In this document: piece by piece, positions 1 through 63,839 of the stretch
Position numbering within the stretch: the stretch's first letter is position 1
Layout of the letters: each line of letters begins with the position of its first letter
From: Amoebophrya sp. A120
Lineage: Eukaryota; Protista; Dinoflagellata
Direction of reading: 5' to 3'
Length of the DNA stretch: 64,000 bases
Assembly: GCA_905178155.1 (NCBI GenBank)
Contig: CAJINV010000016.1
Location: 1,269,386 to 1,333,385 of the forward strand
Notes under the pieces: model-generated
Databases searched by the model: none
What the model saw: the letters and a program-made list of their open reading frames with translations, nothing else
What the model was told of the DNA's origin: nothing
Program-made: the position numbers and the translations under genes

Positions 1-3000
1 TGTAGCTTAAAACCGTGGGGTCGGTTGTGTGGACTTTTTCGACGACAGAGTCTAACGAGTCTCTTTCCGGAATCAAATTTTTCAATTGCGGAAACACGTC
101 CCAGCTCGGTTTGGGAATGAAACGTTTGTTCTTGATCGGCTTCTCTGGTAATCCGGTGTCTTTTTGAGTTTGGTTCAATTTTCCATAGTAGTCGGAGGAC
201 TGCGAAGCTCCGGAATCCGAGTCGTAGATCCCGTGTTTCATGAAAAGCTGCTGCGCTGTATCACAAGAAAAAGTGTTAACGTTAGCGGTTTTCACAGAAT
301 GCAGTCACGCATGACAGTTTTTGCCCAATATGCTTGCTATGCATGACAAATTTGGGCACCTTTTGTGTTGCATTACTGCATCACAAATTCGAATTCCGTT
401 AACCTTAACACTTTTCCCTGTGATACGCTGATGTTTGGTCATCTCCTTCTCCCCGGAGCGCCTTCTCCTCGGCTTCCAACCGATGTCTTTCCTCCTCGAC
501 GTGATCCGCGTGTTTCTGCAACTCGGATTCGTAGAAGTGGGAGTTCTTCTCCGCTTCGAGGCGTTTCTGTTCCGCTGCTTTTGCTTCCTCTGCCGCTAGC
601 TTCGCTTCTTCCTCTCGTTTTGCGTCGGACATGAGGGAGGAGAGGAGTTTTTCCTGCTCTTGTCGGTACTCCTCGTCGGTATCGAGAGGTTTCTCGTCTT
701 CTGCCGCATGATCTTCCTCCGCTTCAATAGCTTCGCCCTGAGCTGCTGCTGCAGCAGCATCCGCAGGACCACCAGCTTCTGCTCCGTTCGCGTCGCCATC
801 GCCTGCAGCAGGATTAGCAGCTTCCGCGTCTGCCATCTGCTCCGCAGTGGCTGCAGGGTCGTGATCTTCGCCGAGATTCTCCTGCGAAAAGAATGACGAA
901 ATTGCTGACTTTTTCTCTTTTTTGTTCATTTCGGAGATCGTCTTCGCTTTCTCCACCACTGCTTCTGGATCGGATTCTGCGTTTTCCAATTGCTGAATTT
1001 CCCAAGCAGATTTTTCCACCTCCATTTCTTCGGCGTCTAACTTCACTTCTATGACCGCGTGATCGAGTAACTGCTTTGTCTCTTCCTCCGCATCTTGCTC
1101 TTTCGGCTCCTCGTCCTGCTGCGCAGCACCTTCGTCACCGTCGTCCGGAGAGGACTTAGCTTTCTTTGCAACAGGTTTAACATTAGCATCCCCGCCAACT
1201 ACTGCAGCCAGTTCTTCCGTCAACCTCGCCTCCAACTTGGAAACTTGCATCTTCCCTAATTCCTCGATTTTCATTTTCGATTTTTTTTCCTGCAGTCGCA
1301 GTTCCAAAATCGCGCTCTTGTGCTTCTCGATCCTTTCCTTCACAAGTCTTTTCCTCTCCTTTCTCCTCTCCTCAGAAGATTCCTTCGCTTCTTTCAACGT
1401 GGTTAATTGCCCCTGCATATCAAATGCAAAAGCGTCTGGGCGGTCTGGAAGATTGCCAGGTTTGTCATGCACATTTTGCATGACTCCTGATGTCTGTGAT
1501 GCATGCCCTAGCGTCACAGATTTTGTGAGGGCCTCCTGATGCCTATACCACATGACAAATGCTCTTTCCGTGTAGCAAAACTTGGATTCTCTTTGCTGCT
1601 CATGCAATACAGATTTTTTCAAAATCCAAAATCAGCATTACAAGTTGGATTCTTCCAGACCCAGACATTTTTACATTTGATACTGCACGTCATTCGTCTG
1701 TTCCTCACAGAACTGCTTAAAATCCTCCGCATCTACCCACGCTTCTATCGGGGCGGTCAACGTATCCGCAGCACCGGACTGTTGGAATTGCAGCGCCAAG
1801 CTGGTTATGCACGGTAAATTTCCTCCTGCGCAGGTACAAATGCGGTTTCTGCATGGCAAAACTTGGTTTCGATCCTAGTTTAGCATGACAAGTTTTGCGC
1901 TCCAAATTAGTGAAATTTGTGATGCATCTGGTACATTTACGGGAAATTTGTATTGCATAGTGGTGACGTCAATGGAGGATGGTGCTGTTTTTGATTTGTC
2001 CTCTCTAACAAGAACAACTCCTCGACCCTCGTATTTCGCAGTTCGGTACTTCTCCCGACTCTCTAACTATCAAATGCAAAAGTGTCTGGGTCTGGAAACT
2101 TGTAATGCTGCGTTGGGACTAGTGAATGCTCTGTAATGCCCAGCCAAGCATGAGAAATATCTGCGCTTCGTTGTGTTGCGTTTTTCGCATGACAAACTGC
2201 GTTTTTGCATAACAAACAAAAGGGCGTCTTCTTGGACACGCATCACAAACTTTTTGGTCATCCCAGACAAGCATGACAAATCGCGCATTCTTCCAGACCC
2301 AGACATTTTTACATTTGATACTAACCGCCACTTCGCGAAATCGGCGAGGAAGTCCGGTTTTTTGCTCTCACTTGCTCCAGGTCCAGCAGCCGCTGCAGAA
2401 CCTCCCGCGGTGCTCCCGTCTAGCATGAGAGATTTCGGCAGTTCGGATTTCACAACCTCTTCCACGGATACTTCCGGGACTTCGACCGGCAGATCCCCCG
2501 GATGGGGTTGTGATTCCACGTAGGACTCTATCGCGTTGTCCAAAGCCCTCAGTCCGACGAGCAGCACTTGGTCCTGGTCCGTTGGAGTCTCCATTTTGTC
2601 CGTCGCGGGTGTGACCTGGGTGGAAGGACGCTGCGACTCGGGTAAATCGCTTGGTTTATCTCCTGCTTCTTTCTCCAACAGGTCCCGGATTTCGCCCGCT
2701 TGGAAGTCGCCAGACTGCTCGCCCACTGTTCCATCAACTAGATTCACTTGTTGCGTGGTCGGTGGTCCACCTACTTTTTGCTGTATCACCACTGGCTCTG
2801 GGATGTAGACGACGCATTCCCTCGCCCGCTTGATGCTTTCCTCGTCTATCCTGTGTAAAGACGTCCCCACCCCAGAGTTGTCATGCTAAACAAAATGCGA
2901 CACACTTTGCCCCCCCATTGTAGCATGGCCGCAGATGGCTTGCCACGCAGGGCGGGTGGGTCAGGCGGACACCGAAATGCCATCACCATCATCTCCCGGC

Positions 3001-6000
3001 CACTATATCCCAACTCTGTTTTCGCCAACCAACCATACTGCGCCAACAACCATACTGTGCCAACTTGTGCCAACTTGCCAACAGAACAACGCCTCACTTT
3101 TATGCCAACAATTCCTACCACTGATTCTCGCAAACTTCCAACTCGCTACCACTATAACGGGAGTATACAGCCAGGCTCACAACAACAAGAAAAAGCTGCA
3201 GCCTGCGGCAAAACCCGTAATTCCTGTCTGGATGAATGCATTCACTGGAGACACTAAGCGACAAGCGCCAGCCTGAAGTGACGTTTAAACAACCAAGTTA
3301 AAGGTAAAAGATGCGAGATTGAATACTGATCTTCCTGATCGCTAGACTTGGCGTTCAAGAAGCATGCTTTCCACATGACCGGAAGCTCGAGGCACAGAAA
3401 TACAATTGGCAAGGCAGCACAAGTAGAACACGACTCTGCACCCAATCCGCAGGCAGCACAAGAAGAAAATGACTCTGCACCCGAACCGCTGGGCTCACGG
3501 AACCACCGGGTCTATTATCGGTTTCCTGCTTCGTGGGCACCCACTTGGATCGTTGTCAGGGGCTGCTAACTCGAAGGCGATCCAGTCAGGCGTCGTTCAC
3601 AGCCTCAGCGGCGCCCGACTAGCTACCCGTCCCGGGTACTTGCGTCTCCGCCGACAAGTACTGAAACTCGTGCAGCTCGGGAACCCGCGACAGCCGGAGA
3701 TCGGGGGAAGTGGTTTTGCCCGCGCGCCGCCCCTCGGCGGCTTCTCGCTACCCCGGCTTCGACACCCTCGCGCGAATACCGCCTGAGTCCTCGTATTCCG
3801 TATACTCTAGGCGAGTGCCATCCGAAGGTGAAACATGCGACTTCCACCGGCCCGTTCTAAGGTGGAGGCGATCCGGTGCGACCCGAGCCTTGCCCTTCAA
3901 CACATATGCACGTAGTCGCCAGCCTACTGCATCGCAGTAGCGCCTCTCCTACGGAGCTGCATTACACCTTGCCTCAAAGTTCTGTTATCGTGAGCTCTTG
4001 TCCGCGCGCCTAGATTGGAGGAAGATAATCTTAGAGAAAAACTACATAGCTCACTAGCTTAGCAGGGGGACCAGGCGAGACGGATGCAGTAAAGCCTGTT
4101 GCTCGCTGTCTTTTTATGAACTGCTTCTGTTCAAAAACCTTAGGAGAAATGAGCAACGCACCAGCCTAGCACGGGAACAAGGCGAGACGGATGGATCCAA
4201 TAATAACGCCGCTTTTGGTTCGTGTTGCGCGTTGTGGAATACCAAAACTTATCAGCTCACGGAAACCTACATGGACATGTTTGAGAGGCCTTTTACTGAG
4301 CGACTACTCAGACTGATTCGGGGGGGGCTGGCGGTCTGGACATCGGGCCAGGCGGGGAGGCTGGGGGAGGATCTGAGGACTGAGTGGGCGTCCTCCCTGG
4401 CTGAACGCACGTCCTCTCCTCTGGTGCGGCGACTGACACCACGATACTGCTCCGCCGCTCCGCAGCACGGCCCTCGTCGTCGACCATAGTATGATGGCGT
4501 ATTCTCATCTGAAAGAGGAGGCAGAACACGCATGGGATCTTGTCGCTAGATTTTTATATGTATGTGGGCACTTGCTCACGTGCTTGCATTATCAGGGACG
4601 GCGGGATTGCTCTTACGAGGGTGTAGTGTATCTGATTGGGCCTGGCGTGGCCTTGCCTCCTTCCTAGCGCATGGGAAGAGTTTGCATATCCTGCAGCATA
4701 GCGTCCTAAGAGCAATGCCGCAACGCAACGCCAAAAGATGCAGAACATAGCGAAAACCGCATGACAAGAGAGCACGTCGAGCTTCTACCATCTTGCGACC
4801 CTTACATCTCCCGCGTTCTGCCTGAGGGGGAATGGATAATTTAGCCCGTCTGCACGGAGCCTGTCGTCGTTGCTGCTTGCGAGGGCCGTGCCGCCACCCC
4901 GGTCGTGCTACTAACCCTTTCTGGACGAGAGGCCCGACGCGCAACGAGCGTCGGGAGAGTCAGAAGAAGTTTTCTTCTATCATTCAACGACGCGGGCGAG
5001 GCAACTTCGCCAGGAAGCGGAGACCTCGCATCTTTATCTCTCGTGGAAATGCCTCCGGAGCCGACCACTGCCCCTCTTCACGCCGCTTTGCTTGGCAGGG
5101 AACAAGGTGGTCGCATCTCGCACAACCTGAATGCCCAACTCGAGGCTCGTCGTGGTTCGCCCACGCGTGTAGGCGCGTCCATTGTGATTTCTTTTTGGCG
5201 ACGCGGGGGCTATGTTGCGTGCTCTACCGGCGCCGTGGCGTCGTAGTGAGTGTATGTCTTGTGCGCCAGCACGATTTCCCTCAGTGGGGCGGCGTCCAGC
5301 GGGCCTAGGATTTGAATTGGCGTATTGTCAGAATTTGTGGTAATCAGGAGTATTGATGCTGATACTTCAGCAGCAAGTGCTTCCAGCACTACATGATCTC
5401 CCCAACATTTGTCTTGGGAATGCTGGTGGATGTACTCTGCCCACTCGCTGTCGGAGCCGACGAACGGCTGATAGTGTGCGCGGCGGAGGATGAGGCTCTG
5501 AATGGCACGACGCCGGAAATGGTTGTAGTTTGCTTCTGACCCAGTAACCATTCTGCTAACCGCCCGACACATGCAGTTTCCATCGCCGATCACTTTGTCT
5601 AGGCGGAGGCCCCGCCCTGCGAGGCGTCCCCGTAGTCTGGCTTCTAGTCGCGCGTCTGCCTCAGCTTCCTTGAGGGAGATCTCCACAGCTTGATCCATCG
5701 CCGATCGCTTCCCAAGTGCTGCATCCTGGCTAGGAATGTTGGAACCGAAAACCCGCTGCGGGATCGTCTGCGGCCGACTTAGGTGCAGTGGACCGGGAGG
5801 TAGGCGCACTTGCTGGAACTCGTGGACAGGGGGGGGAGACGGGCCCCCATTAGTTGCTACCGCTGGGCTTGGGGGCTGCATCTGTGATGGTGCTTGCCGC
5901 TCCCTGGAGCGGCTTCTGACACGGGAGTCGGCGTTTCGCCAATCGGCGACTTTACGGGGGCCACCGGGCGCGGCCCTGTTTGGCCTCTTCCAGCAGAGCC

Positions 6001-9000
6001 TAGCGCGAACATCTTCGATTTCTGCCTCCGGGACTTGCGTGTGCCCGGGCTCCGCTGTGTACATGCGGTGGACCATTGGTGGGACGTGGGACCGGAGACC
6101 CGGAACCGCGGACGGGTCTTGTGTTGCTGAGGGTGGCGGCGCACGCATGCGCGAGGCCTCCACCATGTTGTGAAATACCTCCGCTGCCCGGTCGATGTTC
6201 TTCTGTACTTCGGGGTCTGGCATGACATCGTCCCGAGGCTGGCGAGCGGGGGCTTCGACAGGCCACGTTCCTTTGGGCGGGGGGGGAAGACCTATGAGGG
6301 TGAGGAACACCCTCAACACCTCAGCCGGCTTTTTCATGATCTTCGAGACCGATGGCAGCACCTCTCCCGCCTCCAGCGGAAAGTTGTCGCACATGGCCTT
6401 GCACTCCAGAGTTAGCACATGCTTTGCAAATTGCGAGATCAACACTTGCCGGCCTTGCGACTGAGATTGCCTTTTTTCTCCGGCCTCCGGGGGAGACGGC
6501 GGAGGGGATTCGCTCGTCGGCTCCTGTAACGCAGCCGCCGCGCGATCTATCGAGCCAAACTCCTCTTCGTCCACCGCCATGTCGTCCGCGCCCTGGCTTG
6601 GGTGCTGCGACTCTGCATACATCTGTTGCGAGAAACACACTGCAGCATCTAGCTTCTTGCTGCATAAGCCACATTTTAGGTGAGAGGAGCCGACTACACT
6701 CCTGGCAGCACGCGCTGCTTCCCTTCCGTCGCCCGAGCAGAGACTCCATACGATCCACTGCGACGTGGGGGTGAGGCCGCGAAGGACACGGCGGGCGTTT
6801 CCTAACTGGGAGGCGATTCTCCCTCGGCACGCTCCTGTTTTTGATTGAGCGGCCCGAGTTTGTAGCTGCCGCGCTACTTCCGCCCGCAGGCACTTGCGGG
6901 CGAACTCCCGCAACTGCCGTAGCGGAACGCGCAGGCTTACGTAGTTCGTCAGCGGCTCACTCGGCAATAATGTAGACTTCTGCAAGATGTCGGCCTCGCT
7001 GTGCGGGGATATCCCCGAGTGCCCAGGGCACCAGTGGAATATGAAGGTGATGTCAGGGCGCCGGTCCGCTAGCTTCGTGATGGCCGCCCGGATTTCTTGC
7101 CATGTTTCCTCCGTGCGGAGGGACTGAATGTTCTCCAGCGCCGGGCTGGCATCGCACTGGAAGATCACGAACCTCAGGGCCGGGTCCCAAATCGGCGACA
7201 AGTCTTCGTCTAAGCTGTCCGCCAGCATCAGAACTGCCGCTGCGTGGGCGCCTGACTCACCCCAAAACGTGGTCAGTGTGTGTCGCAACCTCATTGCTAG
7301 AGCAAACTTACCTTCTTCGTCGCAACCCCTCCTCATGACCACCGTCCCCATGCGCTGCTTGGGGCCGGGCCCAGGTTCTGCACCCGGATCGTCGCCACTA
7401 TCCGTTGCCACCCAGAGGAGAGCGGGCCCCAGGGACCTTTCTAGGCCTCGAAATTCGTCGCGGACCCGGGCCGCGACTTCTGGAGTGTTAGCTTTACTGA
7501 GCGCCAGGTCGTATTTTTGGAAGACTGCGGACGCAGGAAGAATGTGGACGTTGCTTGGCAGGGGGTCAGCTGGGATGAGGTTGTGCGAAATAGGGAGTGA
7601 CGCCCAACCCTCTCGCCTCATGTTGAAGACATCCTGCACCTTTGATGACCGGGCGAACTCCGCGTCGTCCAGGCCTATCGCCTGCACGCAGAGGGTAGTG
7701 CGCTCACCTAGCGCCGCTGTGGAGGGCACTACGGCCCCCGCGCTGATGAAGGTGCTGTACGTCGGAGCCGTGAAGGAGATGCGAAGCATGCGGCGCAACG
7801 CTGTCTCCGCGATGTCGTCCAGTTTGATCAACGCGCCCGGACACAGGAGCGACTTTGCGCTTGCCATGTACTGCAGCGCGTTGAATGCCTTCTCGTGGTA
7901 TTTGTTAATTGCTGCAAGCGGGGAGGCGGCTGCCGCATCTACGGCGTCCTCGTCTGTGGACGAGCATGAGAGGACTCGGCGGCGTTGGTCCTCGAAGTGT
8001 TGCTCCCAAGCCTCGGGGTTTACTGTAAGTGGCATCCCGAGGACTGTGATGTAGTTCGCCTTATTATACCTACGAAACAGCCCGGGAAGCCGGACCGACT
8101 TCGGCGCATCGGGGTCCAGTTCCACCTCGACTTCCGGTGGGCAGAGCGTCACGCCGTTGCTGAGCGTAACACGAATCCGCTTCAAAAACTGCTCCAGTTT
8201 TTTCTCGTCACCGGCGGCATGTTCTGGCGAGCGAAGAACGGCCATTCTCCAGTCCGAGACCGGGTAGGGGATTGACAAGAGCTTGTTGCCCCTGTCCTGC
8301 AATTTCTTCACCATCTCGCCCTCGGATTCTGCTGTTACGAAAATTGCGATGTCGTCGCAGTAGGCCGCGACGCACTCCCCCAGCGTGGAATACAGGCCGG
8401 CGGCGATGAGGTGCTTTTCCACACAAGCCCGGAAGAGGGCAGGCGATAACAATGTGCCCTGGCCCAACCCATCGCAGATAGGAAACGCCACCCCCATCAG
8501 CCCGTCCACGGCAATCCGCACCGTTCGCCCAGTCATCCAGTAGCACACTGCCTGCATTACTTGCCGGGATGCCCCCCGCTCTAACAGAACCTGAAGGACT
8601 TCGAGGAGGCTGCAATTTTCGAAGCCCCCCGTAACGTCCGCGACTATCACCGCGACGTATTTGGCGTTCCCTTGCATGGTGCGGATCAGGGCTCGCAGCA
8701 GGCCGACGGCGGGGGATAGCCCCGGAATGAATGCCGTATTGTCTCGGAAGACATTGAGAGACTGCTGTAGTTCGCCGTGCAGGATGCTTTCCGTGAATTT
8801 ATCTTCGACATTCAGCATCGAAATAGGCCGCCAATAGCGACCCAAAAACTTCGAAGCCCCTTTTTTGTTGTGCTTGTAAAGCCAAGACACTAGGTATTGT
8901 TTCGTCCAGGTAGGGGGGTCGTGGTAGTCGTTGAGGGCGCGGCATACTATATCGCACAGAAGGACACAGAGTTCTAGGGAGGCGAGCAGCAGCGCGGGCG

Positions 9001-12000
9001 GGACGCCGTTGCTGCCTGCGGCGGCGTGGGGGTTCAGCCGCTTCTGCGCTCGCATCGCCATGTCACGGGTAGGCTTCAACGGTCTAGATGGTGCCGCTGC
9101 GATTAATTTCGCCGCGGCCGCCGCCACGTCGTGCTCCTCTTCTGGGGTGCGCAACAGCCCGGCTGGCTTGTTTTCGCATAGCCGCACTCGGAATTGGTTC
9201 ATCGTCTCTTCTGTCGACGCGGTGAGGGATCCATCCCCACGTAGTAATGCGAGGTGAACGGAGGGAAGACGGGACTTGTTGTGTGGGGCTTTTGCCCGAT
9301 CAAGTGCTGTCGCCAAGGTGTCACCCGTGAAAGACGGCTCCTGCCCCGACGCAGCCGCGGATGCATCGGAGAGAACCTGGCCCAGCGTTTCCTGGTCTAT
9401 GCTGCTCCAGTGGAATACCTTTCGCCGGGTGAGCGATTGCGGGCAGGAGATGCTGTCTGGCCGGTCTTGCTTTTCTTGCCACCCGTCTGCGTTGGCGCCT
9501 AGGGCCGACCCATCCTGCCGCAGTTCGCAATCGATGCGAAGATGAGCGGCCCCGTTCATCGTAAGGTAGCGCGGTTCGACGAGCCGCGTGCATAGCACCG
9601 TTTCCGTGGTCCGAGGCTTGAGCAGGACGACGTCCGGCTGGGATTCCCCGGAGGGGAAAGTTACATCGTCCGCCTGCAGTGCGGAGGTGAGCCCTTCTGC
9701 TGTCGCGAATTGTGACAGTTGGCTTTGCAGCCAGTTCCCGCGGGGTGTGTCCGCTAGCACAGGGCCCGTGCTGGCGTTTAAGTCCCCGGCGATGCCTACC
9801 ACCTCCGCGGCATTGCTTCTCGCGAAGTTCATGAGGCTTTCGCGCTGCCCTCGGACTGGTAACTCTGGAACGCTGCATGAGGCTGGAGGAATGTAGCCGG
9901 CCAAGAGACGCCCCGCGATGTCCTCGTGGGCTACTAAGATGCAGGCCATGTTCGGTGCCCCTGGGATGGCCGCTGCGATTGCGTGGTCTGCAGGCCGGAG
10001 AGAGTGCGCCACTAACACCATGGCTCGGGGGGCGGACCAGATGAAGAACCGCCCAAGGAGTGTGCGGTAAATCAGGTCCCGGATTGGTTGCTGCAGTGCT
10101 TGAGTCGGCGTGTCGGATTCCGACACGACGACTACCAGCGCCCGCGACGCGTTGATCTCATGCACCAGCAACGGCCACTGTGAAGTGAGCGCGCGAGACA
10201 TGTTTATCGCCATGATCACGAAGCGCCGCCCTTTGGACCAGTCCTTGTCCGGCTTGGGTAGCCCGCCGGTGAAGTTCAGTCGGAGGCTGGCCAAGTGGTA
10301 CGCGGTCGATGTAGTTATTTCCCTTCTATTGTCTGTTTCCCCCCTGCGAACGCCCGGCGCCAGAACTCCTTGCGCCAGCTCCGCTAACTTCGCTAGCATC
10401 GCGCTCTGCAAGCGGCCGTGGCGCCCGATTCTGCACAATATCACATGTGCCAGCAGTGACGCTGGTTGTGCAGTTTCTTCTCCACAATGTGAACAGACGT
10501 AGAGCGCGTGCTGCTGAAATTCGATCTGCGACTGGGACTGGCTAACCGGAACGCGGAGGTACACCGGATAATCTGAGGAGGGGGCGGGGGAGTCGCTTTC
10601 GCCGGGTTTCGGGAACCATTTCGTCGGCCTTGGCTCGTCCGGTGGCGCCCGAGTGACTTCTAAAAAGGAGGCCAAGTACGGGTGGACCATCGGGTTGCTC
10701 GCCTGTGTGGCTTCTAGCCGGCCCGTTGCTGCTCGCACGCATTCCGCACAACGCCCATGCTGTTCGAGTTTGTTTACGGCAAGGTTCCACCGGCTGAGGC
10801 CCCGCGTTGGTGCGCAGATCATGTCCTCGACCTCTGAAGCGTCGGCCGCGGGCCGGTCGTGCATTGACCAGAAGAAAGTTCCCGGCGCCGCTGATTCGAT
10901 CTGCCGCTTCAGGCACCCGTGGCCCTTCGTCACCACTGCCTTGTCCTCGTCGTTGTCTACGCACCTGATTCCCGCGCTGATGAGCGCCTCTGGGTTTGGC
11001 GGACGGTCACACCAGTCCGAGGTTGTAAAGCCGCCGTAGTTGTGAATAGCCGCGGCCCCTTTGCGCCTCGGCATGCGGCGCGGATCGATTCTGATGCCGT
11101 GGTCTGTGCGGCGAAGAGCTACACCGTCGCTGGCTGCACTCGATAGCGGCCAGACGCCGGCGTAATCCGGGAAGCAGTCTGGGATTTCTGCGAGAGGACC
11201 CTCGCGGCAGGAGGTCGCCCGCCATACCGCTAGCGGAATTTCTGTTTCGTAGAACTTTTTACCCCCCGGTATGCACACCCCTCGGCGAAGCGCTTCTTCT
11301 GCAGCCTGTATCCTCTTAGACTCGCGCTCCCCCTCCTTCGCCGGGCGCGACATTTCCGCAAGGCAATGCGGGCCACATTCTAGTAGTAAGTTGTGCCGCT
11401 GTGCAGAACGGAATGCTGCTGCTGTGTGCTTCGGTACCATGCGCGCCACTTTTTGCAGTTTGGTCAGTGACCCCGCTGGAAGAAACGCCGGCGTTAGTAC
11501 GAACGCCTTGTTTGCTACGTATGTATCTGGGATCGCGTCCTCGTCTACCGCCGGAAGCGGGAGACCCGGCGGCCCGTCGCCCACGTTGGCATTTGGCGCC
11601 TCTGGGACGGGGGCGAGCTGCTCGAGCCGCTTGATTACAGCCGCGCGTATCGCTGCCATTGCCAACAGAGGCACGACCCACATCGTCGCTCTTTCTGCCC
11701 ACTTCCTGCGTGCTCTGTGCCCGACGAGCCCGCGTCTAGAGCTGTGCGGTGCACTGAAGGATTAGTGTCTTCGCTTTCTGTCTTGTGCCAGCCTATACCA
11801 ATAATAATTTAACTTCTATACATCAGTATATCACCAGAGTTGTCATGCAGATTTACCATGACAGGAACATTTGTGATGCGCAACCCCATGACAGGCATTT
11901 TCAATCGTGTTTGGGAACTTGTGATGCTGTAAACAGGATCAGAAGGTCGATTTGTGATGCGGCTTTCCTTGCTAACTTGCACTACCTTACGGACTGAAAC

Positions 12001-46365: not shown

Positions 46366-49341
46366 TCACATCGTCTTCTTCACAGCTTCATCACCCTCCT
46401 CCTCCAGAAAAAACTTCTCATCCTTGGTCAGCAACTTCGCCCGGGTGGAATGCGAGTACATGTATTGGAACACCCGGAGGAAGTAGTCCCGCGTGTATTC
46501 AAATTGGTACAATTCCTCGTACAATCCCTTCTCCTTCAACCACCCCTGCATCGCAATCGTCGCTTCCTTCAAGTGGTAGTGCGGGATCTTGGTGAAAAAC
46601 AGGTGGTGGATCACGTGGCAATCGGTGATGTTATACATTGCAAAAGTATCGTACTAGTAGAAATAGCATTACAAATTTTGCCAGAAGGAAAAATGGAATT
46701 TGTAATGCTGAATGAGGGAAGTAACCAGATTTGTCATGCATGACTGAAATCACCACGAGTACGAGTTAGTACGATACTTTTGCAATGCATAAATGTGGTG
46801 GTGAAACAAGTCAATCACCGACCCGAACGTGCGGTCAACGGTTTCAAACGCGGCGGTCGAGTATTTCCAGGTGGTATTGTCGTACACCTTCACGGTCGGG
46901 TTGTGGTGCTGCAGGTAGGTGACGGTGTAGAGGTAGAAGCACATGGTGAACCAAGCGGGAAGGTATACAATCGCGAACTCCGAGAAATTTCCGTTGAAGA
47001 AACATTGCGTGTACCAGTACCCGTAAGCAAGGACGACGAAAACGGAAATCCAGCACTTGATCAGTTCCTGATTTTAAGGTATGATATTTGGTTTGATGTG
47101 CGAAATCACTCACAAACACCACGATCCTCAAAGCGAATCTGTCATGCTGTTTCATCTTCATACAAAAACGAAATGATCCATTGCGATCTTCATCTCTAGT
47201 TACTTTCACACGAAGACCAAAACTTCTTTATTTATACCTGCGTATCCACATTTTCCCACAACCTGCATCCGCTGAAGACGTTTGGAAAGTAGTGGGTCCC
47301 GTCCACCCCTCCGTACTGTTGGGGCCACAGCATATGGATCTGTCAGGATCGAAATCGACAAAGTTGAAATGATTTGTAATGCATAAAACGGACATGAAAG
47401 CCGTCGCCCAGATTCCAAGTGGCGCATGACAAATTTGGGTAGAACCGAAATCCAGTTTGTCATGCTGTTTAGGTAAGGAAGAGCTCCTCTTGTCATGCTA
47501 TTGCAGCAGCTCAGCTTCTACCCCTCAACAGGCTTACAATCTGCCTCACTTGCCTCCTCTGCAAGACAGGCGTTCTATGGGCTGCATTTTATGCATAGCA
47601 AATCACTTCAACTCTAACGATTTCAATCCTCGCACTCCCATACAGCAGGTAAAACGCGTAGCCAAACACCGGGTACACCGCCGCGGGAATCGCCGGGTAG
47701 TTTTTCACGAGCGAACTGTATAACAGTGCACAACTCCCCCTCCCCCTCATTTGTATAGCATGAACGGCAATACAAGCATCAGCAAGAATGCTCGTTTTGC
47801 ATGACAAATTTGCACTGGATTAAAGTGCTATTTGGGCTACCAAAACTTGTCATGCAAACAGTGCTAAGAGGCAAAGGGTAAATTGGGTATTTTGCATGAC
47901 AAATGAGGGGGAGGGGGAGTTGTGCACTGTCATAAACTGCACGCCTTGTCGAACTTGGGATCGTGGGCCCAGGGGAAGCTGTAGTCCTTGTCCAGATGGT
48001 TGTGGTACATGTGATGAAACCGGTGGCTCCGGGCCCAGGACTGAAACGGCACAAAGATCGCCCCGTGGGTCAAGTTTCCGAAGAAGAAGTTGATATTTGA
48101 ATTGTTGCTGAACGTTCCGTGTCCGCAGTCGTGACCGACGACGAAATTCGCCCACATGAAAAACCCCGCGAGCCAGTAGAGGAAAATCGCCAGGACGGGT
48201 TTGAGCAGGATAGAAGTGTGGAAACTGCTGATGTTGATGTTGTTGTTTTCCTGCTGTTGACTACTGGTGCTGATTAACGACGATGAATTGTCGAGAAACA
48301 AGAAACCGTCCAACTCCCCGCGGTACAACATCTTCAACCCCGTCAACGCGGAAAACACGACCGCTAGATCGAACACCATCCACTTCAGGGAGCGCGCCAA
48401 ATCCTTCTGGAAACACTTCTTCGGCAGTGCCTTCCGAAGATATACTGCGCAAAAGTATCGCACTCGTACTAATTGCAAACATGCATGACAAATCTTGCTT
48501 CTTCGCCAAGTCAGCATTACAAATACCATTTTTCCTGCTGGAAAAATTTGTATTGCGATTTATACTAGTACGATACTTTTGCAATGCATAGGAGATCCTC
48601 CAAGTTGAAATTTTCCGGGTGGTATCCACAGAAAAAAACCCACGCACATCCAATTTGTCATGCAGAACACGCATCAAGTCATGTGTTTGTCATGCAAAAA
48701 ATGGATGTGGATGTGTGTTTTTCTGTGGATAGGTGGACCTGGCTGTCGTGCTCGATGAACTTCAAAAACTCGGTGTCGCGGAGGTTATCAAATGTAAAAG
48801 TGTCTGGGTCTGGAAAAATGCAACTTGTGATGCTGCATTTGGATTCCAAAAAAATCTGTATTGCATGAGTACCAAAGGAAATGCAATTTTTGCTACGCTG
48901 AGAAGGCATTTGTCATGCGGAATACGCATCAAGAAGCCCTCAGAAAATCTGTATTGCTCGGGTATGCATCACAGACATCATGGCTCACGCAAAACGTGCA
49001 TGACAAGTGTCAGAATCTTCCAGACCCAGACATTTTTACATTTGATAGAGGTTTTGGTGTTTCAATTTCGACTTCGTTTGCGCTTCATCGTCGGTGTCGG
49101 ACGAAGAAGTTGTTCCCGTTGCACCCCCTTCGTCTTCAGAGGAAGACCTGGACGCCCGCGTGGTGGTGCGGGTCAAAGTCGCACTGCTGGTGCGGGCGAT
49201 GTCGTTGTCGGTGGTGTTGTGTGCGAATAGTTCTTGTTTGGTCGCAGCTTTATGCTGCTGGTGTGGTCCGGAAAAAGAATTCTCATCCTCGGTCGACAAG
49301 AGAGTCTTGTCCGGGTACCCGGGAATTGCGGCGGTGGACAT
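46366..49341 (-). CDS. Membrane fatty acid desaturase (delta-12/omega-3 type)
   Basis: His boxes HDCGH, HRFHH and HHITDCHVIHH; also DLRKALPKKCF, VTYLQH, TVDR and IPHYHL. Frame is continuous across six introners and one GT-AG intron (47068-47237). Confidence 0.9.
46632..46791. mobile_element. Introner (family F5), 160 bp
   Basis: TIR tatacattgcaaaagtatcgtacta; TSD gatgt/aatgt; interrupts the HHI|TDCHVIHH region. Confidence 0.9.
47333..47642. mobile_element. Introner (family F6), 310 bp
   Basis: TIR tatggatctgtcaggatcgaaatcgacaaagttgaa; TSD cagca; frame restored. Confidence 0.9.
47719..47934. mobile_element. Introner (family F4), 216 bp
   Basis: TIR tataacagtgcacaactccccctccccctcatttgt; TSD aactg; frame restored. 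Confidence 0.92.
48441..48590. mobile_element. Introner (family F5), 150 bp
   Basis: TIR tatactgcgcaaaagtatcg; TSD gaaga/ggaga; frame restored DL|RKAL. Confidence 0.9.
48623..48731. mobile_element. Introner (family F7), 109 bp
   Basis: TIR tatccacagaaaaa; TSD ggtgg; frame restored. Confidence 0.9.
48786..49047. mobile_element. Introner (family F1), 262 bp
   Basis: TIR tatcaaatgtaaaagtgtctgggtctggaa; TSD gaggt; frame restored. Confidence 0.92.
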
Positions 49342-51154: not shown

Positions 51155-52891
51155 CGTCTCAGAATACTAAACTCAGTGCGAATTTTGCGTCAGCTTTCTG
51201 CTTCTCGTAGTTTACCTTTAGGCCTCCAAGAGCAAGAGCGACGAGCTCTAGAGGACTGATGAAAAAGAGAAAAAATCCTTTTTCTTCGGTAGATGAGGAT
51301 CGATGACTACGAGGAAGGCGATTAGGATTATCACATGCGCCGACAACCGCTTTAGGTTCTCTATATCCTACCTGTTAATCATGTTGCTCATGTGGTTGTC
51401 GACGATCGTCCAACAACGAACACTACAAAGACACTCTGCGCTCGAAGAAAATCTATCAAAGACTCATCTTCATCGGCGAGGGCGAGCGACGACAACGGCC
51501 ACGCTAGACGTGGAACTCGAAAGCGATAGCTTCGCCCGCCTCTACAACATTGGCGGCAGGCGTCGATCAATAACAATGGCACACTGATAGATAATTTATG
51601 AAAGGAAACATCACCGGCGGCGCGCGCTCGCATGTTTGTATGACAAGGGCTGCTTCTTCCACGCGCACGCCAGAGCCCTAATAACGAACCCGACCACTGA
51701 CTGGCGGCAGCACCCGATTTACAAGCGAAAAGGGCGCGCCCGTGGGCAACAGGGTAACTAAGCTGGCAGGCAACGGCGCACGGGACTAGGCGAACCGGGC
51801 GCGCCAACCGCGGCTTCTTCGGCCATTGCTTTGCGCGGCCCCGCCGGATTCTGACTGTCCCGGGCGGGTGGCTGCGAACATTCGCGGGCGCTGGCACAAC
51901 TAGGGCGCGCGCCCTCGCAGCGTGCTAGTTGACGAAATACGACAGAGATAGCCCGGGCACCGAACCAGCAACGCGCCCCAGGCCCGAAGCGCTGCAAATG
52001 TAAGCGCCACCACAGCCCCACGACGCAACCCAGCCTGCCACCAGAACCAGGCGGGCCAAGGGCGCGCGCCCTGCCCCATCCCCCCGGAATGCCGGCCGGC
52101 CGTCTTCGATACGCCGGCCATTCGATTCCCTGCCGGGCCGAGGTCCGTCGAGGAAGGCGGCGCGGAGCATCTTGGACGCGAGCGCCTCGCTTCCACGATG
52201 CTCCTGGCGTGGAATGCGTGCCCCAAGCCATGTCGGGAAGGCGCCCGCGGAGGAAGCGCAAAGATGCCGCGCCCCGGCTGAGTGTGTAATCGCTAACACA
52301 ATCCAGGACACTCCTGCAGGAATCGGCGCGCAGGCTCCGCCCTTCGTGCGCCTGCCGGACCGCGTTAAGCCGGCCGGGGGCCCGCCCCGCCGCGCCCGCT
52401 TTGTCCCTGTCCTCCCGCATTTTCGCAATTTTCTCGCTCGCGAGTTCGGAGAGTTTCCGCTTCTGCTCTAAGGCGGAGACGAGCCCGAACACAAAGCGGG
52501 GCCGCTGAGCCTGTCACGGACGACATTGAAGGCCTGGCCCGGGCATTCCTACAGCGGCCACTTGCTGGCTTCACGAGCCGGGACGTTCTGACGATCGCTC
52601 GCAGTTAGGACACAAATACGACAGACATGATGCATCAAGCGCGACGGCAACTATCTGTCTCTCTCCTGACCCGATCCCGACACAGCAGCAGAACACCCGA
52701 GAAACCGACACGACATAGGAACACAGAGCTCGACGAACCAAATCAATCTACATTGCTGAAGCTTTCTTCTTCAAAGTTCAATCTCAAGATGTACACGGAG
52801 CTATCCACGTCCTGTTTATTTAAGTTCGATAATGAAAATTCAAGCTGAGTTGTGGAGGAGCCATCAAATACGTACAAAACGAGAAGCAGTC

Positions 52892-52970: not shown

Positions 52971-53114
52971 ACGCCGCCCCGCAGCCAAGCATTAGAAGAC
53001 GCAAAGCTGTTTCGACGGCTTGCGTTGAACGTGTCGGGAGCAGCGCAGCCAGGGAAATCGAAACACGCGAATAGCAAGTCCAACACCGGCGTGCCCGGGG
53101 TAACCCAGTTTTCG

Positions 53115-53666
53115 ATGAAGCAAAAAAGAAAATGGAATCGAGGAGCAATCGTAGGAGCGTTCAAAAGCCGGAAAAAGGCGATCCTCAGAAGGTACAAGGT
53201 GAACATGAACACCAAAGCCCCAATGAAAAATTGGCAAAAGCAGCGAAAGTGTAGAACGAAGGCTCAGAAGGCAGGCTTAATTCAGCTCATGACACGATGG
53301 AGACAGGCGAAAATGGAGCGCGTCGAGCACCCTGGCCGCTCGGGACGAATGCAACGTCACATCAAGAAGACCACCATCGACCCGCTCCGCAAGAAAATTG
53401 TGGCCCAGGGGAAAACGCTCTTCGATTTCCGGAAAGTGGCGAAGAAGCTGTTGAAGCCCCGGCGCGCAGCAGTGGCTACCAAGAAGTCGGAGCTGTTCGT
53501 GCCGAGTTCTTCCACCCGGAGAAAAGCGGAGGTTGCTGCCGGGTCTGTGCCGCATGTCCGACCAGCACACCAGCCTACCATGGATCCACGTGAGTTTCGA
53601 TTCGTCGGACCAACAACCAAACTGCCGAAGACGCGGGACATGTCGAAGGGGTTCCGACGCCCCTGA
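53115..53666 (+). CDS. Highly basic (K/R-rich) hypothetical protein, only credible plus-strand ORF
   Basis: ORF 53025-53666 with first ATG at 53115; intronless; lies just downstream of repeat copy 1. Confidence 0.45.
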   Translation: MKQKRKWNRGAIVGAFKSRKKAILRRYKVNMNTKAPMKNWQKQRKCRTKAQKAGLIQLMTRWRQAKMERVEHPGRSGRMQRHIKKTTIDPLRKKIVAQGKTLFDFRKVAKKLLKPRRAAVATKKSELFVPSSSTRRKAEVAAGSVPHVRPAHQPTMDPREFRFVGPTTKLPKTRDMSKGFRRP

Positions 53667-54889: not shown

Positions 54890-55000
54890 AGCCGCCTCTA
54901 CTAGAATTTAGTAGTTAGTTAGCCGCCTCTACTAGAACTTAGTATGCGTGGTCAAGAGTTAGCTCATGAATAGCTCCAGCTGCACTCTTAAAGTTCTGGA
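54890..55000. repeat. Structured repeat, copy 2 (54921-55000), preceded by a partial duplicate (54890-54913)
   Basis: Direct sequence identity with copy 1. Confidence 0.9.
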
Positions 55001-56997: not shown

Positions 56998-59900
56998 TCA
57001 CCTTCCCCACAAACTGTCCGCCGTTCCCCCTCGCCGTGTTGCCTTCGGAATCATGTTTTCCTTGTCATCTTCCGACGCACTGGTGTTCTCCTCGAACTGC
57101 TCATTTTCCGGAATGCTGCTGGTTTCCAGGCTCTGCAGTGTGCCACTCGGTCCCCGGAACGACATCCGCGGCGCGGGCCCGTCCTCGTATATGCGCTGCA
57201 AAAGTATCGCACTAGTACAAATCGCAATACAAATTGGCTCAGCATTACAAATTGAATTTGTAATGCTGTTTTACCTTGGGATGAAGATTTGCAAATTGTA
57301 ATCAATGCATGACTGCGATTACTACGAGTACGATACTTTTGCACAGGATATCGTACTTTTCAACGCCATTTTCGGTAAAACTCCCCGCGTCACCTATGGG
57401 AGTGTCAGGTTTGAAATCGACAAAGTTGAAATGGCTTGTGATGCAGAAAATCAATACCAGTTGGAAGCCCAATTTTCAAGCGGTGCATAACAAATTTCCC
57501 GAGCACCGGAATCCGATTTGTCATGCTGTTTGGGCACAGACGACTGCTTTTGTCTTGCTACTTTAGAAGCTCTATTTCACACCCTAAACAGGCTGACAGT
57601 CGGCCTTACTTGCCATCCCGGCAAGACAGGCACTTGCATTTTATGCATGACAAACTCTCTCAACTTTGTCGATTACGATTTCAAACCTGACGCTTCCATA
57701 TCACCCCCGGCCCCGCGGGAGGAGGAGTGGATATACTCTGCAAAAGTGGGTGTAGAATCGCATTTGGAGAAGCGTTTTTCGCATCTAGTACTTCTCGTAT
57801 ATCATCCTTTATTTTCGAGTTATGTTTTTTATGCCAGGTGGAGCAGCATTGCAAATGCAAGTTCCGCATTTTTACTACATTTCTTTGAATTCGATATATC
57901 ATTCGAGATGCGATGTACACTTCTAGAGGAAAAGTGCGATGCAACTTTTGCAAGAATGCATAAGAGACGACATCCGGCGAAGATTTGTCAAAAACGTCCG
58001 TCGCTGACCACATGTGGCCCGGCTTTTCGGTCAGTACCGCGGTCATGTTCTGGGAACTTTGCCGGAGGAACTGCGCTATGGATAGCAAAAGTAATATCTT
58101 CATACTCGTAGTAATCGAAATCGTAGGCATGCGCCATAGTCTGAAGGTTAAGGTGAGTCCGCATTTACAAATTTCATTTATCATGATCCTCCTGACGAAA
58201 TTCAAATTTGTCATGTGATTCTGGCACGAAGATACTTTTGCAACGCATATTCGCGCGCCATTGGGCGGTGGACTCCGCAAAGTGCTGCTTGGCTTGCGCG
58301 TTCATCTGGTGAGATGCGTTTTTTTATGTGATGTTCGAGGACCCATAGTTGTACTCCTGATAATTACATTTGTAGTCACGCAGGTCCGAGAACAAGGGAG
58401 CGCCGAGGCGACCAAGAAGAATAACTCGCGTTTCAGTTTGTTTCGCTCCTACACAAAGCAATTTCTTATGCAAAAAAACAAAAAAAATCCTACCTGCGAA
58501 TCGTCCGCGGTTGCGTGGAAGGTCTGCGCACGCTGAAACGTCGCCCGGATCCGCTTCGGTTGCCCCAGTTGTGGGCTCGAGTCCCGCTGTTCCGCCACCG
58601 ATTCCGGGTTGTGGTTTGCGAAGGTGCCTCGGTGGGAGGGCTGCGTATGACACCCTCAGAATGGAAATCCTCAAAGTGCAAATGATTTGTGATGCATGAA
58701 ATGCGACACCAAAAAGACTGTATTGCAGAGAACGCAATGGAGGCCGACTATTCTGCTTCTACGGGTTCAGAATTGGGCTGCTGATTAGCATGAGAGAAGG
58801 GCACCCCTTTGCCTAACTAGCATGACAGACACGCTTTGGGTGCCCGGGAAATTTGTCATGCGCCGACTAGAAGCGATGCTCCAACTGGAGTCGTTTTTTT
58901 GCATTACAAATTATTTTCACTGTGAGGATTTCTAAGCTGAGGCTTCCATACTGCGTGCCGGTCACGTAGCTGTGGTTGGCGAAGGTTCGTCGCTGGCCCC
59001 GCATTTCCCGGATCTTCATCTGGTTCTTCTGTTTTGCCGTGGACTGCTGGAGGTTTCCCTGCGGGCCTAACTGATCAAACGGATCCACGGCGGTCTCCGC
59101 GTTTTTCACCCGGCTCAGCATATCCGTGCTCCGCCGCAGAAACTCATCCGCGTTTGCAGGGAGCCGACCCCGAAATTCGGTGGAGGGTGTCGCGGAGTGG
59201 ATGTTGCTGCTCAGCGAAGCGGTTCCCCCACCAGCGACGAGCGGTCCGGAATGCGTCCCGGACGGGGTAATGCGTTTTGCTCCCGCGGCGGACCCGGCCG
59301 CAGCTGCTCCAGCAACAAAGGAGGTCTGTTTCAAATTATTGTCCATATCGACTGTGGAAGTGTCGCTCAAACCGGGGAGTGGTAGCCCAGCAGTCGTTCG
59401 CTCTCCCGATAAGAGCAGCTTGCCGAGCATTTTCTGCTCCACGAACTGCGACCGCAATTCTTGCCGCTTTTTCTGCTGATCCTCTTGGATGATCTTTTGT
59501 TCCTTCGCTTCTTGTTCTGTTCGCGGAGTGCTGGTCCACTCGATGTCGCCGTGAGAACTGTTGCTGCTGATACCTCGTCTAGTGTTGTTGTTCCCGTCCA
59601 GATATTCTGTGCAAAAATATCGCGTTCGTAGCAAAAGTAACTAGAATTAATACAGTGATGCCTCAGTACAAATTACCTTGTTCTTCCCAAGGTGAAATAT
59701 ATTATAATATATATTATCGTGATTATGACAAATGGCATGACAAATTCCATTTGTGGTCATGCTGAGCGAGAGCGAGTTGGAGTTTGCAATTGCGATTACT
59801 ACTGAGGCGATATTATTACTGTTTCAATTCATACCACAACCTCGTAAGTTTTCGTCTCGTAGTCACTGGAACCCGATTTCTCGCGTTTGTTCCCCAACCC

Positions 59901-60612
59901 GCCGAGCATCCATCTATCCTGTGCAAAAGTATCGTACTCGTATTGCAATCATGCATTACAAATCTATTTCCTAAGGTAAATCAGCATTACAAATTTTCTT
60001 TCTCATGCTGAGGAAATTTGTAATGCATTTATACGAGTACGATTCTTTTGCAATGCATACCACCTTTGCTGCTCCAGTAGATCCAAAGTTGGGCAGTTTG
60101 GAATCGGTTTCCCGGTTTTTTTATCCAGGACGGTTTGCCCGTCCGCCGCAATCCGATACTCCGTTAGGCCGGTAGCAAGGTAAACCAAGTCCGTGTTTTG
60201 GTCTACCTCCTCGGCGGGGGCTGCGCCTCCGCTAGTGGTCATGGCGCTACTGCTCGATCCGCTGCTGCTGTTTGCTCCACCTGTAGAAGTACCGGAGAAC
60301 ACGAGACTAGTTTTCGGGGGCGTCCTGATGCCGCTGGGTTTGGGCGACAAAATGCTGCCGTGCATGAAAAGCTTTTCTACTGATTGTTGCTGGAAGGAGG
60401 TAAGGGCCCCTGCTGAGTCTTTATTTCCGGCCTTACTGGAGGAAGAGGAAGACTTCTGATGCTTGGCGTTTGTCATTATCTGTTGCTGCTGCAGTATGGA
60501 AGCGTCCACCTCATACGAGGTTCCGGAGGAAGAAGATCTATTGGCTCCCTTCGAATTTGTGTTGGACGAGGCGTTGGACTTTTCTTGGTCCGGAGGCTGT
60601 TCGGTGACCTCA
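56998..60612 (-). CDS. Multi-exon low-complexity hypothetical protein (5' end unresolved)
   Basis: Frame continuous from ORF 60003-60509 through 58867-59634 to 56998-57201 across seven introners and at least one GT-AG intron. Confidence 0.65.
57190..57350. mobile_element. Introner (family F5), 161 bp
   Basis: TIR tatgcgctgcaaaagtatcg; TSD tcgta; frame restored. Confidence 0.9.
57395..57700. mobile_element. Introner (family F6), 306 bp
   Basis: TIR tatgggagtgtcaggtttgaaatcg; TSD tcacc; frame restored. Confidence 0.9.
57732..57962. mobile_element. Degenerate introner (F5-like), 231 bp
   Basis: Ends tatactctgcaaaagt / acttttgcaagaatgcata; TSD decayed (gtgga/agaga); frame restored. Confidence 0.68.
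58077..58249. mobile_element. Degenerate introner (F5-like), 173 bp
   Basis: Ends tatggatagcaaaagta / tacttttgcaacgcata; TSD tgcgc/ttcgc; frame restored. Confidence 0.75.
58646..58950. mobile_element. Introner (F6-related), 305 bp
   Basis: TIR tatg....ctcag....gaaatcctca.agtg.aaat.atttgt; TSD ctgcg; frame restored. Confidence 0.9.
59603..59833. mobile_element. Degenerate introner (F5-like), 231 bp
   Basis: TAT...ATA ends; TSD ccaga/ccaca; frame restored. Confidence 0.72.
59915..60059. mobile_element. Introner (family F5), 145 bp
   Basis: TIR core tgcaaaag.atcgtactcgtat; TSD ccatc/ccacc; frame restored QRW|MLGG. Confidence 0.88.
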
Positions 60613-60828
60613 TTTTAAATGATTATTTGTGTCGTGGTTTTTTATTGGCCGCGAAAGGACCAATCATAAAGCACATGCAGATCAACTGTTCTTGCTGCAA
60701 TTGCAGTGCAAATCAGAAGTGCTGAGTACTACGCTCGTGCAAGACTTCAACTTCTACAGGCAAAGCCAGGAGCAAGACAAAGACACGAGCAGCACGACTG
60801 CAGAAGCAGCTCATGGAAAAATTACATG

Positions 60829-61104
60829 TATGGATGTGTCAGAGTTGAAATCGACAAAGTTGAAATAATTTGTCATGCATAGTGGCGCATGACAAATTTC
60901 GGCGGTTCCTAAATCCAGTTTGTCATGCTGTTTAGGCAAACAAAAGTGATTTTCTCATGCTACTTTAGCAGCTCGAGCTGTAACCCCAAACAGGCTTACA
61001 ATCGGCCTCACGTGCCTGCTCTGCAACACACGTACCGCGGGCCATGCATTTTATGCATTACAAATTATTTCAACTTTGACGATTTCAAACCTGACGCTTC
61101 CATA
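60829..61104. mobile_element. Introner-type MITE (family F6, internally deleted), 276 bp, no evident coding context
   Basis: TIR tatggatgtgtcagagttgaaatcgacaaagttgaaataatttgt; TSD acatg. Confidence 0.88.
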
Positions 61105-62807: not shown

Positions 62808-63839
62808 CTATCTCGCCACCAGATTCATGAACGCGTCGTGGTTACTCGCCGGGGGCAGCTCCACCAGCGGGTCGTGCTTTGCGTAGTAGGTTTTCAAGAT
62901 GGCCGAAGATATGCATTGCAAAAGTTAGTATCAAGGCTTGCACTAATACTAATTGCAGCACAGCATGACGAATCTGAATCTCGCTGCTCAGCTCATGCAG
63001 CATTACAAGTGTCTCATTCTTCCTCCTGGAGATGAAACTTGTGATGCTATTCCGACTAGTACGATACTTTTGCAATGCATAGACCCGATAAACTCCCCAT
63101 TTTTCGACGGATCGGTCACAGTCAGCTCGTACCGATGCGGGATATCCTCCAGAGGGGGGCAAAACGTGCCGAAATCCATCTTACTTCCCCCGACGGGTTG
63201 TTGGAAGGGGGTGAGCAACTTCGTGTTCCGCAGGTTGTAATCTGCGTCCCACAATACCTCGTTACCCTCTGACAAATCTTCCAAATGCACGTGGATCATG
63301 TCCCGGCGGTCTTTCAGTTCGAGCAACGGGTGCTGTGCGCGTACCACGTTCCCCTTCGTGCTCGCACCGAACAACTTCTGTTGCATCTCGGTGATCCCTT
63401 GTTGTCCGGGAATATTTGTCGTCCTGGAGGACCCTTGTGACCCAGAAACCACGGGCATAGACCGCCGGAGCTTCCCGCAGGCGAAAAGGTCGGGGTTGTT
63501 GATGTCGGTGTGGGTGATTTGGTCTGATTGGTAATCCGTCATGATCTGCATGTCTGTCTCTTTCACGCCCAAACTGCTCGAAGGTTCCTTCGCCAATTGC
63601 CGCATGGAAAACAGAAAAATCGCCGTGAGGAAGGTCCGGAGTAAATCCGGCAGCCAGAGCTTGGGCAGCCCGGGGAGCTCGGGCAGCATCGGGGGAAAGG
63701 TCAGCGGGAAAGGCCAGGGAGGGCAGAGCTGTTGCGGTGTCGTGTTTTTGGAATTTATGTAGCTACAGGAAGTATAACGCATCGCAAAGTAGGTCGTGTG
63801 TAGCTTAAGTTTTTTCTGTGCGTGACCTAGGCTAAGCAT
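62808..63839 (-). CDS. PEBP/YbhB-like domain protein (start uncertain, possibly ATG 63689)
   Basis: Motif DFGTFCPPLEDIPHRYELTV. After introner removal the C-terminus reads FIGSAILKTYY...LVAR*. Confidence 0.6.
62910..63081. mobile_element. Introner (family F5), 172 bp
   Basis: TIR tatgcattgcaaaagt; TSD decayed (gaaga/gaccc); frame restored. Confidence 0.82.

Follow-up and report, generated by a model that had tools for sequence, protein, structure and literature searches.

The 64,000-nucleotide window analysed here (Amoebophrya sp. A120, Dinoflagellata; assembly GCA_905178155.1, contig CAJINV010000016.1, positions 1,269,386 to 1,333,385 of the forward strand) contains minus-strand genes whose coding exons are interrupted by 39 elements that begin with TAT, end with ATA and are flanked by a 5-bp target-site duplication (TSD). 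The elements span positions 259 to 63081 and are small non-autonomous transposon copies, that is, introns resembling MITEs (miniature transposable elements with inverted repeats); they are almost certainly introners of the type described for A120. They are removed at the RNA level as the element plus exactly 5 bases, and very probably in one fixed register, N/TAT...ATA NNNN/ (slashes mark the cuts), wherein cleavage falls one base before the element and four bases after it.

A first scan for TAT...ATA pairs with inverted arms matching at 12 or more of 20 positions and a 5-bp repeat matching at 4 or more of 5 returned 27 pairs, while none of 10 dinucleotide-type shuffles yielded any. The 39 elements come from a relaxed scan curated by eye, and as they were picked for their TAT and ATA ends, the presence of these terminal inverted repeats (TIRs) in 39/39 is partly built in. 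An A-run about seven bases inward, at one or both ends, accompanies them in 31 of the 39. Identity between the flanks peaks solely at 5 bp (mean 0.84, versus 0.21–0.33 at lengths 2–4 and 6–9); the duplication is perfect in 22 elements and matches at 4/5 in 11, 3/5 in one and 2/5 in five, which places 33/39 at 4/5 or better. By BLAST clustering, 29 copies fall into seven multi-copy families (F1 to F7) beside 10 singletons, and both element orientations occur relative to the minus-strand genes. Once the element plus 5 bp is deleted, the minus strand reads without a stop for 22 or more codons to either side at 39/39 sites, with the caveat that short flanks may be open by chance and that other deletion sizes sometimes open the frame too. 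Sliding within the duplication gives GT-AG or GC-AG ends in 4/39 elements only. The HAD and fatty-acid desaturase exons that the elements interrupt were confirmed by Pfam; Rfam returned no match in the window. Summed DNA contig depth reached 1e4–1e5 in the highest element bins versus ~45 in unique bins, a figure that does not measure copy number. The initial annotation, made from the letters alone, had counted 38 elements in about seven families, with perfect duplications in about half, frames restored by deleting the element plus 5 bp, and few copies able to slide to GT-AG; all of this holds on closer analysis, with the count now at 39, including the copy at 2847, which is split by a retrotransposon.

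Transcript evidence comes from contigs of runs X3–X6 (two samples of one study), whose RNA label is guessed. Between 46300 and 60300 there are 15 listed joints and three more; of the 15 listed, 12 skip exactly the element plus 5 bases in all four probable RNA runs, and the remaining three are two canonical introns and one cross-copy artefact. Two further joints and seven length-based cases outside this list also skip the element plus 5, which brings transcript support to 21/39 elements (14 joints and seven by length). Outside the interval, joints with other element copies of the DNA run crowded the table, so that piece coordinates alone were usable. In the lists that follow all features lie on the minus strand, the duplication is perfect (5/5) unless a lower match is given, and the inferred intron runs from the element's end + 1 down to its start − 4. 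Joints were seen at 46632–46791 (F2, 160 bp, in the desaturase gene; 4/5), 47333–47642 (F3, 310 bp), 47719–47934 (F6, 216 bp), 48441–48590 (F2, 150 bp; 4/5), 48623–48731 (F7, 109 bp), 48786–49047 (F1, 262 bp), 57190–57350 (F2, 161 bp), 57732–57962 (singleton, 231 bp; 2/5), 58077–58249 (singleton, 173 bp; 4/5), 58646–58950 (F3, 305 bp), 59603–59833 (singleton, 231 bp; 4/5) and 59915–60059 (F2, 145 bp; 4/5), and further at 31816–32054 (singleton, 239 bp; 3/5) and 32350–32459 (F7, 110 bp; 4/5). The canonical GT-AG introns at 47068–47237 (donor GTATAA) and 58306–58493 (donor GTAGGA) serve as internal controls. Removal is read from summed length for three elements of the HAD gene, at 27381–27738 (singleton, 358 bp; 2/5), 27842–28146 (F3, 305 bp) and 28336–28641 (F3, 306 bp), and from length at 29134–29344 (singleton, 211 bp), 29391–29558 (F2, 168 bp) and 39360–39638 (F4, 279 bp); at 39763–39912 (F2, 150 bp; 2/5) the RNA evidence is expressed in record coordinates. 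At 27381, a GC-AG cut would alter the conserved Ala of the ALA motif (weak PDB match, E 1.2–1.5).

At the other sites the evidence is mainly the reading frame. It is the frame only at 259–425 (F5, 167 bp), 1418–1682 (F1, 265 bp), 1806–1959 (singleton, 154 bp; 4/5), 2068–2320 (F1, 253 bp), 12742–12957 (F6, 216 bp) and 13036–13205 (F5, 170 bp; the initial annotation's example of a gggta duplication), with the site at 1806 also joined in an ortholog, P0001. The frame likewise supports removal at 2847–12087 (F4, 9,241 bp, with a nested retrotransposon), 21138–21399 (F1, 262 bp, in an IQ-motif gene), 25116–25268 (F2, 153 bp; 4/5), 30930–31152 (singleton, 223 bp; 2/5) and 62910–63081 (F2, 172 bp; 2/5). 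At 31331–31505 (singleton, 175 bp; 4/5) an RNA piece starts at 31506, on one side only, and the element at 57395–57700 (F3, 306 bp), wherein GT-AG is reachable by sliding, is not among the listed joints. The set is completed by elements at 41024–41173 (F2, 150 bp; 4/5), 41996–42207 (singleton, 212 bp; 4/5), 42270–42524 (F1, 255 bp), 43142–43423 (F4, 282 bp) and 60829–61104 (F3, 276 bp), the last lying 5' of its gene's long open reading frame (ORF) and possibly untranslated.

Two explanations would deny that these junctions reflect splicing. The TA-bounded, TIR-bearing form of the inserts recalls the internal eliminated sequences of ciliates, and given that the RNA label of X3–X6 is a guess, the elements might be excised from DNA and not from RNA. 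This is barely credible and has largely been refuted already: the DNA run X1, possibly the window's own source sample, covers 29445–39386 with a single contig that shows 0 differences over the four elements it crosses, which stand at the depth of the flanking unique DNA (~43), and X3–X6 also lack canonical GT-AG introns and give no cover at 51437–52370. The comparison with DNA reads that the initial annotation had proposed against DNA-level excision therefore comes out in favour of removal from RNA. A hairpin combined with a direct repeat is, further, a classic setting for template-switch artefacts; both are present here and the RNA data are all cDNA-derived contigs, so that the junctions could be products of reverse transcriptase while the elements stay unspliced in vivo. 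This is very unlikely, because the joint at 57732 is exact even though its repeats match at only 2/5, and for the same reason the direct repeat is not the splice signal. A single register is moreover kept, one contig per run omits all five desaturase elements together with the canonical intron of that gene, and retained elements would introduce stops or frameshifts into conserved genes.

The cut could be located with copies whose duplications are mismatched, as had been suggested in the initial annotation. If k denotes the count of upstream duplication bases kept, the allowed values are 2–4 at 31816, 4 or 5 at 32350, 3–5 at 39763 (record coordinates), 0–4 at 46632, 4 or 5 at 48441, 4 at 57732, 4 or 5 at 58077, and 2–5 at both 59603 and 59915. 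The sole shared value is k = 4, which fits 9/9 informative copies; k = 5 is ruled out by three of them and k of 3 or less by four. At 57732 the joint runs unambiguously from 57727 to 57964. In this register TAT occupies intron positions +2 to +4 and ATA positions −7 to −5. The +1 base is free (A11, C9, G11, T8 over the 39 elements) and the last two intron bases are unconstrained, leaving no acceptor dinucleotide, so the pairing of a GT or GC donor with an AG acceptor that marks U2-type introns is not found. Nor, at the joints seen, do the probable transcripts retain the elements or resort to a nearby GT-AG, either of which would have spoken against the initial annotation: the joints skip the element plus 5, and at 59915 an available GT-AG cut (k = 1) is left unused. 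A cut of the kind known from Fritillaria, with one base kept and an acceptor TAN, was considered and is excluded by seven RNA-informative copies and 39763. An apparent asymmetry of G/C at +5 (39/39 at the 5' end versus 33/39 in the window) was also dropped, the related assembly described below giving 197 versus 196 of 205.

The introner system itself is already known. Farhat et al. 2021 (PMC7789003) described A120 introners with an inverted repeat of TAT, seven variable bases and then at least three As, with direct repeats of 3–5 nt (5 bp in the legend of Fig. S19), non-canonical borders, thousands of copies and no internal transposase. The window elements share the TIR, the direct repeat, the non-canonical removal and the grouping into families, in agreement with the statement of the initial annotation that such introners are described for Amoebophrya. 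Gozashti et al. 2025 (PMC12130899) list 58 A120 introner families, and the lengths of the window families (~110, 150–160, 210, 260, 280 and 305 bp) match families in that list. A GC content of about 50% and the co-oriented genes are likewise in line with A120 as the host. The register is the addition: Farhat et al. state that border positions are variable or unknown and without a clear signature, whereas the borders in the window resolve to one register with an N-U-A-U donor. A fixed register was not found in the literature searched, although Figs 3 and S19–S23 of Farhat et al. may show part of it.

The same families recur, at 74–96% best identity, in the JACKZZ01 contigs of one metagenome assembly, from which at least 154 stretches with the TIR pattern were taken (151 loci, 555 kb). 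Among 280 elements called there by their arms alone, the 5-bp duplication is perfect in 210 and matches at 4/5 in 28 (238/280); the other 42 include mis-paired ends, and no other duplication length is prominent. A perfect 6-bp duplication occurs in 0/39 window elements and 0/280 related ones, so the uniform TSD length that the initial annotation had noted extends beyond the window. When the triplet criterion is dropped, 195 of 214 pairs of inverted and direct repeats still carry TAT/ATA. The ortholog P0001 (95% identity over the query) runs uninterrupted through five sites that hold insertions in the window, and enters a family-F2 copy of its own at about window position 1748, a site that is empty in the window; its stop comes directly behind the ATA of that copy, where it is expected if the empty site was duplicated over 5 bp. 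To judge from this protein sequence, the copy is apparently present in one genome and absent from the other, and the gene model of P0001 is mis-annotated.

What inserted the elements is less directly documented. The search for long elements encoding a DDE transposase, proposed in the initial annotation, gave no autonomous copy; neither the window nor the 555 kb of related loci contained a long coding element bounded by such ends, and one TIR pattern searched against viral contigs gave no match. The best guess is an integrase-type transposase akin to Ginger or IS3EU. A120 family 38 is listed as a Ginger with a 5-bp TSD, TA/TA termini, a length of ~808 bp and five copies (PMC12130899); the window families, at 109–358 bp and non-coding, are likened to it by description. 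IS3EU and GingerRoot elements, whose transposase is integrase-like with a DDE motif, also have TA..TA termini (TAYGG..CCRTA in rust fungi), as do the elements here (PMC10045372, PMC12730594, PMC6839031). They are not described as introns in the relevant passages of PMC10045372 and PMC12730594, and the window elements are not members of these groups because they lack the 6-bp duplication. The earlier proposal that one type of transposase making 5-bp staggered cuts produced all families is plausible; it does not stretch to all A120 introners, because a small family of four copies has 8–9 bp duplications and GG/CC ends (PMC12130899).

The 5' ends of the elements resemble the host's own donors. 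The 10 canonical donors in the window, four transcript-supported and six chosen by eye, all begin GTA, followed at +4 by T in six, C in three and G in one, never by A. The elements have U at +2 invariantly, A at +3 almost invariantly and a +4 base as in these host donors, i.e. the core of a U2-type donor. In Table S4 of Farhat et al., the top A120 non-canonical pairs start N-T in 9/9 cases and those of A25, whose TIR is TTA, start TT in 9/9 (PMC7789003); this would mean that both lineages have +2U and +3A in common, with the TIR shifted by one base between them. Further, snRNP27 and U1 were reported as undetected in A120 (PMC7789003), and in yeasts a preference for U at +4 has been found to go with loss of SNRNP27K or METTL16.

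The main rival, a substantial possibility that we nevertheless hold to be the less probable one, is a second, non-spliceosomal pathway like that proposed for Euglena, wherein a structure-guided nuclease and a ligase would recognise TAT/ATA at the hairpin base, cleave at set distances of 1 and 4 nt from it and release circles; it is the terminal-pairing idea of the initial annotation in its strongest form. Nonconventional introns of Euglena share with the elements a MITE-like origin, a terminal inverted motif, fixed asymmetric spacers (N3CDG...CH'GN5-6) and coexistence with GT-AG introns (Nomura et al. 2025, PMC12501133). Folding predictions made for 38 elements agree, with at least 9 of 12 expected terminal pairs forming in 30, as do the missing acceptor dinucleotide, the indifferent +1 base, the failure to find U1 in A120 (PMC7789003) and a constraint on positions 2–3 that is alike at both ends. 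The likeness has its limits: in Euglena the motif is CAG/CTG with spacers of 3 and 5–6 nt, as opposed to TAT/ATA with 1 and 4 nt, and a purine starts the exon, whereas no clear purine rule applies here (123/205 in the related assembly); the euglenid signature of CDG at +4 to +6 pairing with CH'G and followed by a purine exon start is not found. Euglena introns have, moreover, been proposed to be non-spliceosomal (PMC12501133), while the elements mimic the donor of their host. In A25, +2U seems to be preserved next to another overhang.

Substitutions at the ends bear on the same question. Strand could be assigned for 205/339 elements of the related assembly, using a coding model trained on the window. 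If the RNA pairing were selected, G-U pairs on the transcribed strand should exceed A-C; no such excess appears in the window or the related assembly (28:19 in the window, 133 versus 168 in the related assembly, 67 versus 62 among private changes). In comparisons with near copies (253 elements), stem positions 4–20 vary at the interior rate, with 189 and 191 changes versus 181 expected. The terminal triplets changed 0, 1 and 2 times at the 5' end and 5, 1 and 2 times at the 3' end where ~12.5 were expected for each position, a constraint that may partly reflect the needs of the transposase and the selection for TAT/ATA. The outermost pair is broken from the 3' side only, with 7 changes of the outermost base at the 3' end and 0 at the 5' end (17/20 end variants oriented; p = 0.016), and A(−7)U(−6) are the most constrained 3' bases. 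All four TAC starts in the related assembly are preceded by G, giving GTAC. Pure terminal pairing is therefore not supported. The claim of the initial annotation that splice sites are defined by terminal pairing rather than by dinucleotides survives for the acceptor, which has no dinucleotide; it fails for the donor, with its +2U and +3A, and for the cut, which is asymmetric (1 nt and 4 nt) and accompanied by no visible base-by-base selection on the stem.

A third system offers a precedent for the spliceosome. MITE-derived introns of Fritillaria borealis share the TIR, the TSD and non-canonical ends with the elements, and are removed by a modified U2 spliceosome; their ends are mostly AG-AC and AG-AT, in contrast to the N-T donors and any acceptor dinucleotide seen here (PMC11282704). 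The explanation of the A120 elements that we favour as a whole, with moderate confidence, combines transposon introns, a fixed register, a relaxed spliceosome and an acceptor set by distance; catalysis by the spliceosome is, taken by itself, given only slightly better than an even chance. The elements would be inserted through 5-base staggered cuts by a DDE transposase that is integrase-like, as in Ginger, GingerRoot and IS3EU. The 5' site would be read by sequence as N-U-A-U, equivalent to the canonical G-U-A-(U/C) donor with +1 freed, and probably through U6, because U1 was not found in A120. The overall hairpin, tolerant of single mismatches, would draw the two ends together, and cleavage on the 3' side would fall 4 nt past ATA at a distance set from the element end, with A(−7)U(−6) perhaps acting as a branch point or in a short pairing. 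Because the element ends are palindromic, either orientation would be spliced and the gene restored exactly, and the two duplication copies need not match for exact removal.

Several points weigh against this explanation. The RNA evidence all derives from contigs, and that these runs are RNA is a guess, the single raw-read RNA run that was tried matched 4 reads only and is probably from another strain, and the exact register is fixed by one copy, 57732. Neither a lariat nor a circle, a branch point or an snRNA contact was seen, and an acceptor without an AG-like signal is unusual for the spliceosome. The borders in Table S4 may reflect aligner habits. Among the oriented 5' variants, TAG preceded by T and TTT preceded by A are not donor-like; the end-variant copies have no RNA support and take their strand from the window-trained coding model. 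The constraint at positions 2–3 is symmetric and could reflect the transposase, as even the nearest copies are just ~87% alike. Finally, no transposase gene was found in the window or the related loci, nor in A120 by Farhat et al., and IS3EU/GingerRoot elements usually have a 6-bp TSD (PMC10045372, PMC12730594), unlike the 5 bp here.

The element at 2847–12087 consists of two halves that, when joined, form a 281-bp F4 copy that is 84% identical to the element at 39360. The 8,962-bp insert between them (2887–11848 on the minus strand, a span that counts in one of the two 15-bp target duplication copies located at 2872 and 11834) is an apparently intact non-LTR (long terminal repeat) retrotransposon, or long interspersed nuclear element (LINE). 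Its ORF (5210–11761, 2,183 codons) encodes a reverse transcriptase (RVT_1, E 1.8e-13) and a C-terminal OTU deubiquitinase-like domain (E 3.8e-9); endonuclease and RNase H stretches were read by eye and left unconfirmed by Pfam. The idea that the 9.2-kb element is itself an autonomous transposon was rejected, as it encodes reverse transcriptase and OTU domains and has its own 15-bp duplication. Removal of the element plus 5 opens 101 and 661 codons on its two sides, where other sizes break one side, and yields an open frame of 762 codons that runs across five elements; because of this frame, 2847–12087 is probably removed as a 9.2-kb intron. Protein matches of 304–2000 aa did not include the product expected from the window itself when spliced over the LINE, and no other LINE copies were found in the window or the related loci.

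Five longer related-assembly copies (457–972 bp) likewise hold inserts, which have no long ORF, short ORFs having been read by eye. These inserts, of 177–704 bp and several with A-rich or microsatellite tails and 8–19 bp duplications, lie in the copies at loci L075 (6024–6995), L050 (3862–4492), L049 (571–1051), L077 (8962–9457) and L023 (5314–5770), alongside that at window position 2872. The apparent 3' end of the insert falls within ~8 bases of CATG in 6/6 cases including the LINE, against a background of 15% of element positions, an association spotted post hoc and with two junctions ambiguous. Targeting of introners by retroelements is thus possible.

A few other features of the window deserve mention. 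The interval 40812–40943 on the minus strand holds a canonical-looking GT-AG intron that begins GTATTGAAAAAG and holds the motif GCATGACAA; it may be an old introner with acquired canonical ends. A dispersed repeat of ~85 bp, without an Rfam match, is present in four or five copies (52893, 54891–54922, 55070 and 56386) within intergenic DNA that is partly transcribed. Nearby, a short ORF region at 53006–53666 lies on the plus strand against an otherwise minus-strand gene cluster, with probable RNA cover and loose ends on both sides (52989); it may represent either a repeat or a gene with several copies. The stretches 44084–44820 and 51391–52513 are GC-rich with long open frames, and the probable RNA runs leave 51437–52370 uncovered.

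A broader reading, which is tentative and as a whole rather doubtful, would join these observations. A120 would have a second splicing code, N/UAU...AUA NNNN/, which would explain most of its 'signal-less' introns (tens of thousands); the transposon end would be a built-in reversible donor for a spliceosome devoid of U1; a hairpin ruler would set the AG-less acceptor, even across 9 kb; and retroelements would insert at the internal GCATG of introners, hidden in DNA that is always spliced out. A single register turns more than half of A120 introns from noise into a rule. It would allow the A120 gene set to be re-annotated, would provide exact junctions for lariat or circle assays, and makes the choice between a modified spliceosome and a second machinery directly testable. 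The elements show a way for a transposon to do no harm whichever way round it lies, without help from the target sequence, the same solution having been reached separately in euglenids and larvaceans.

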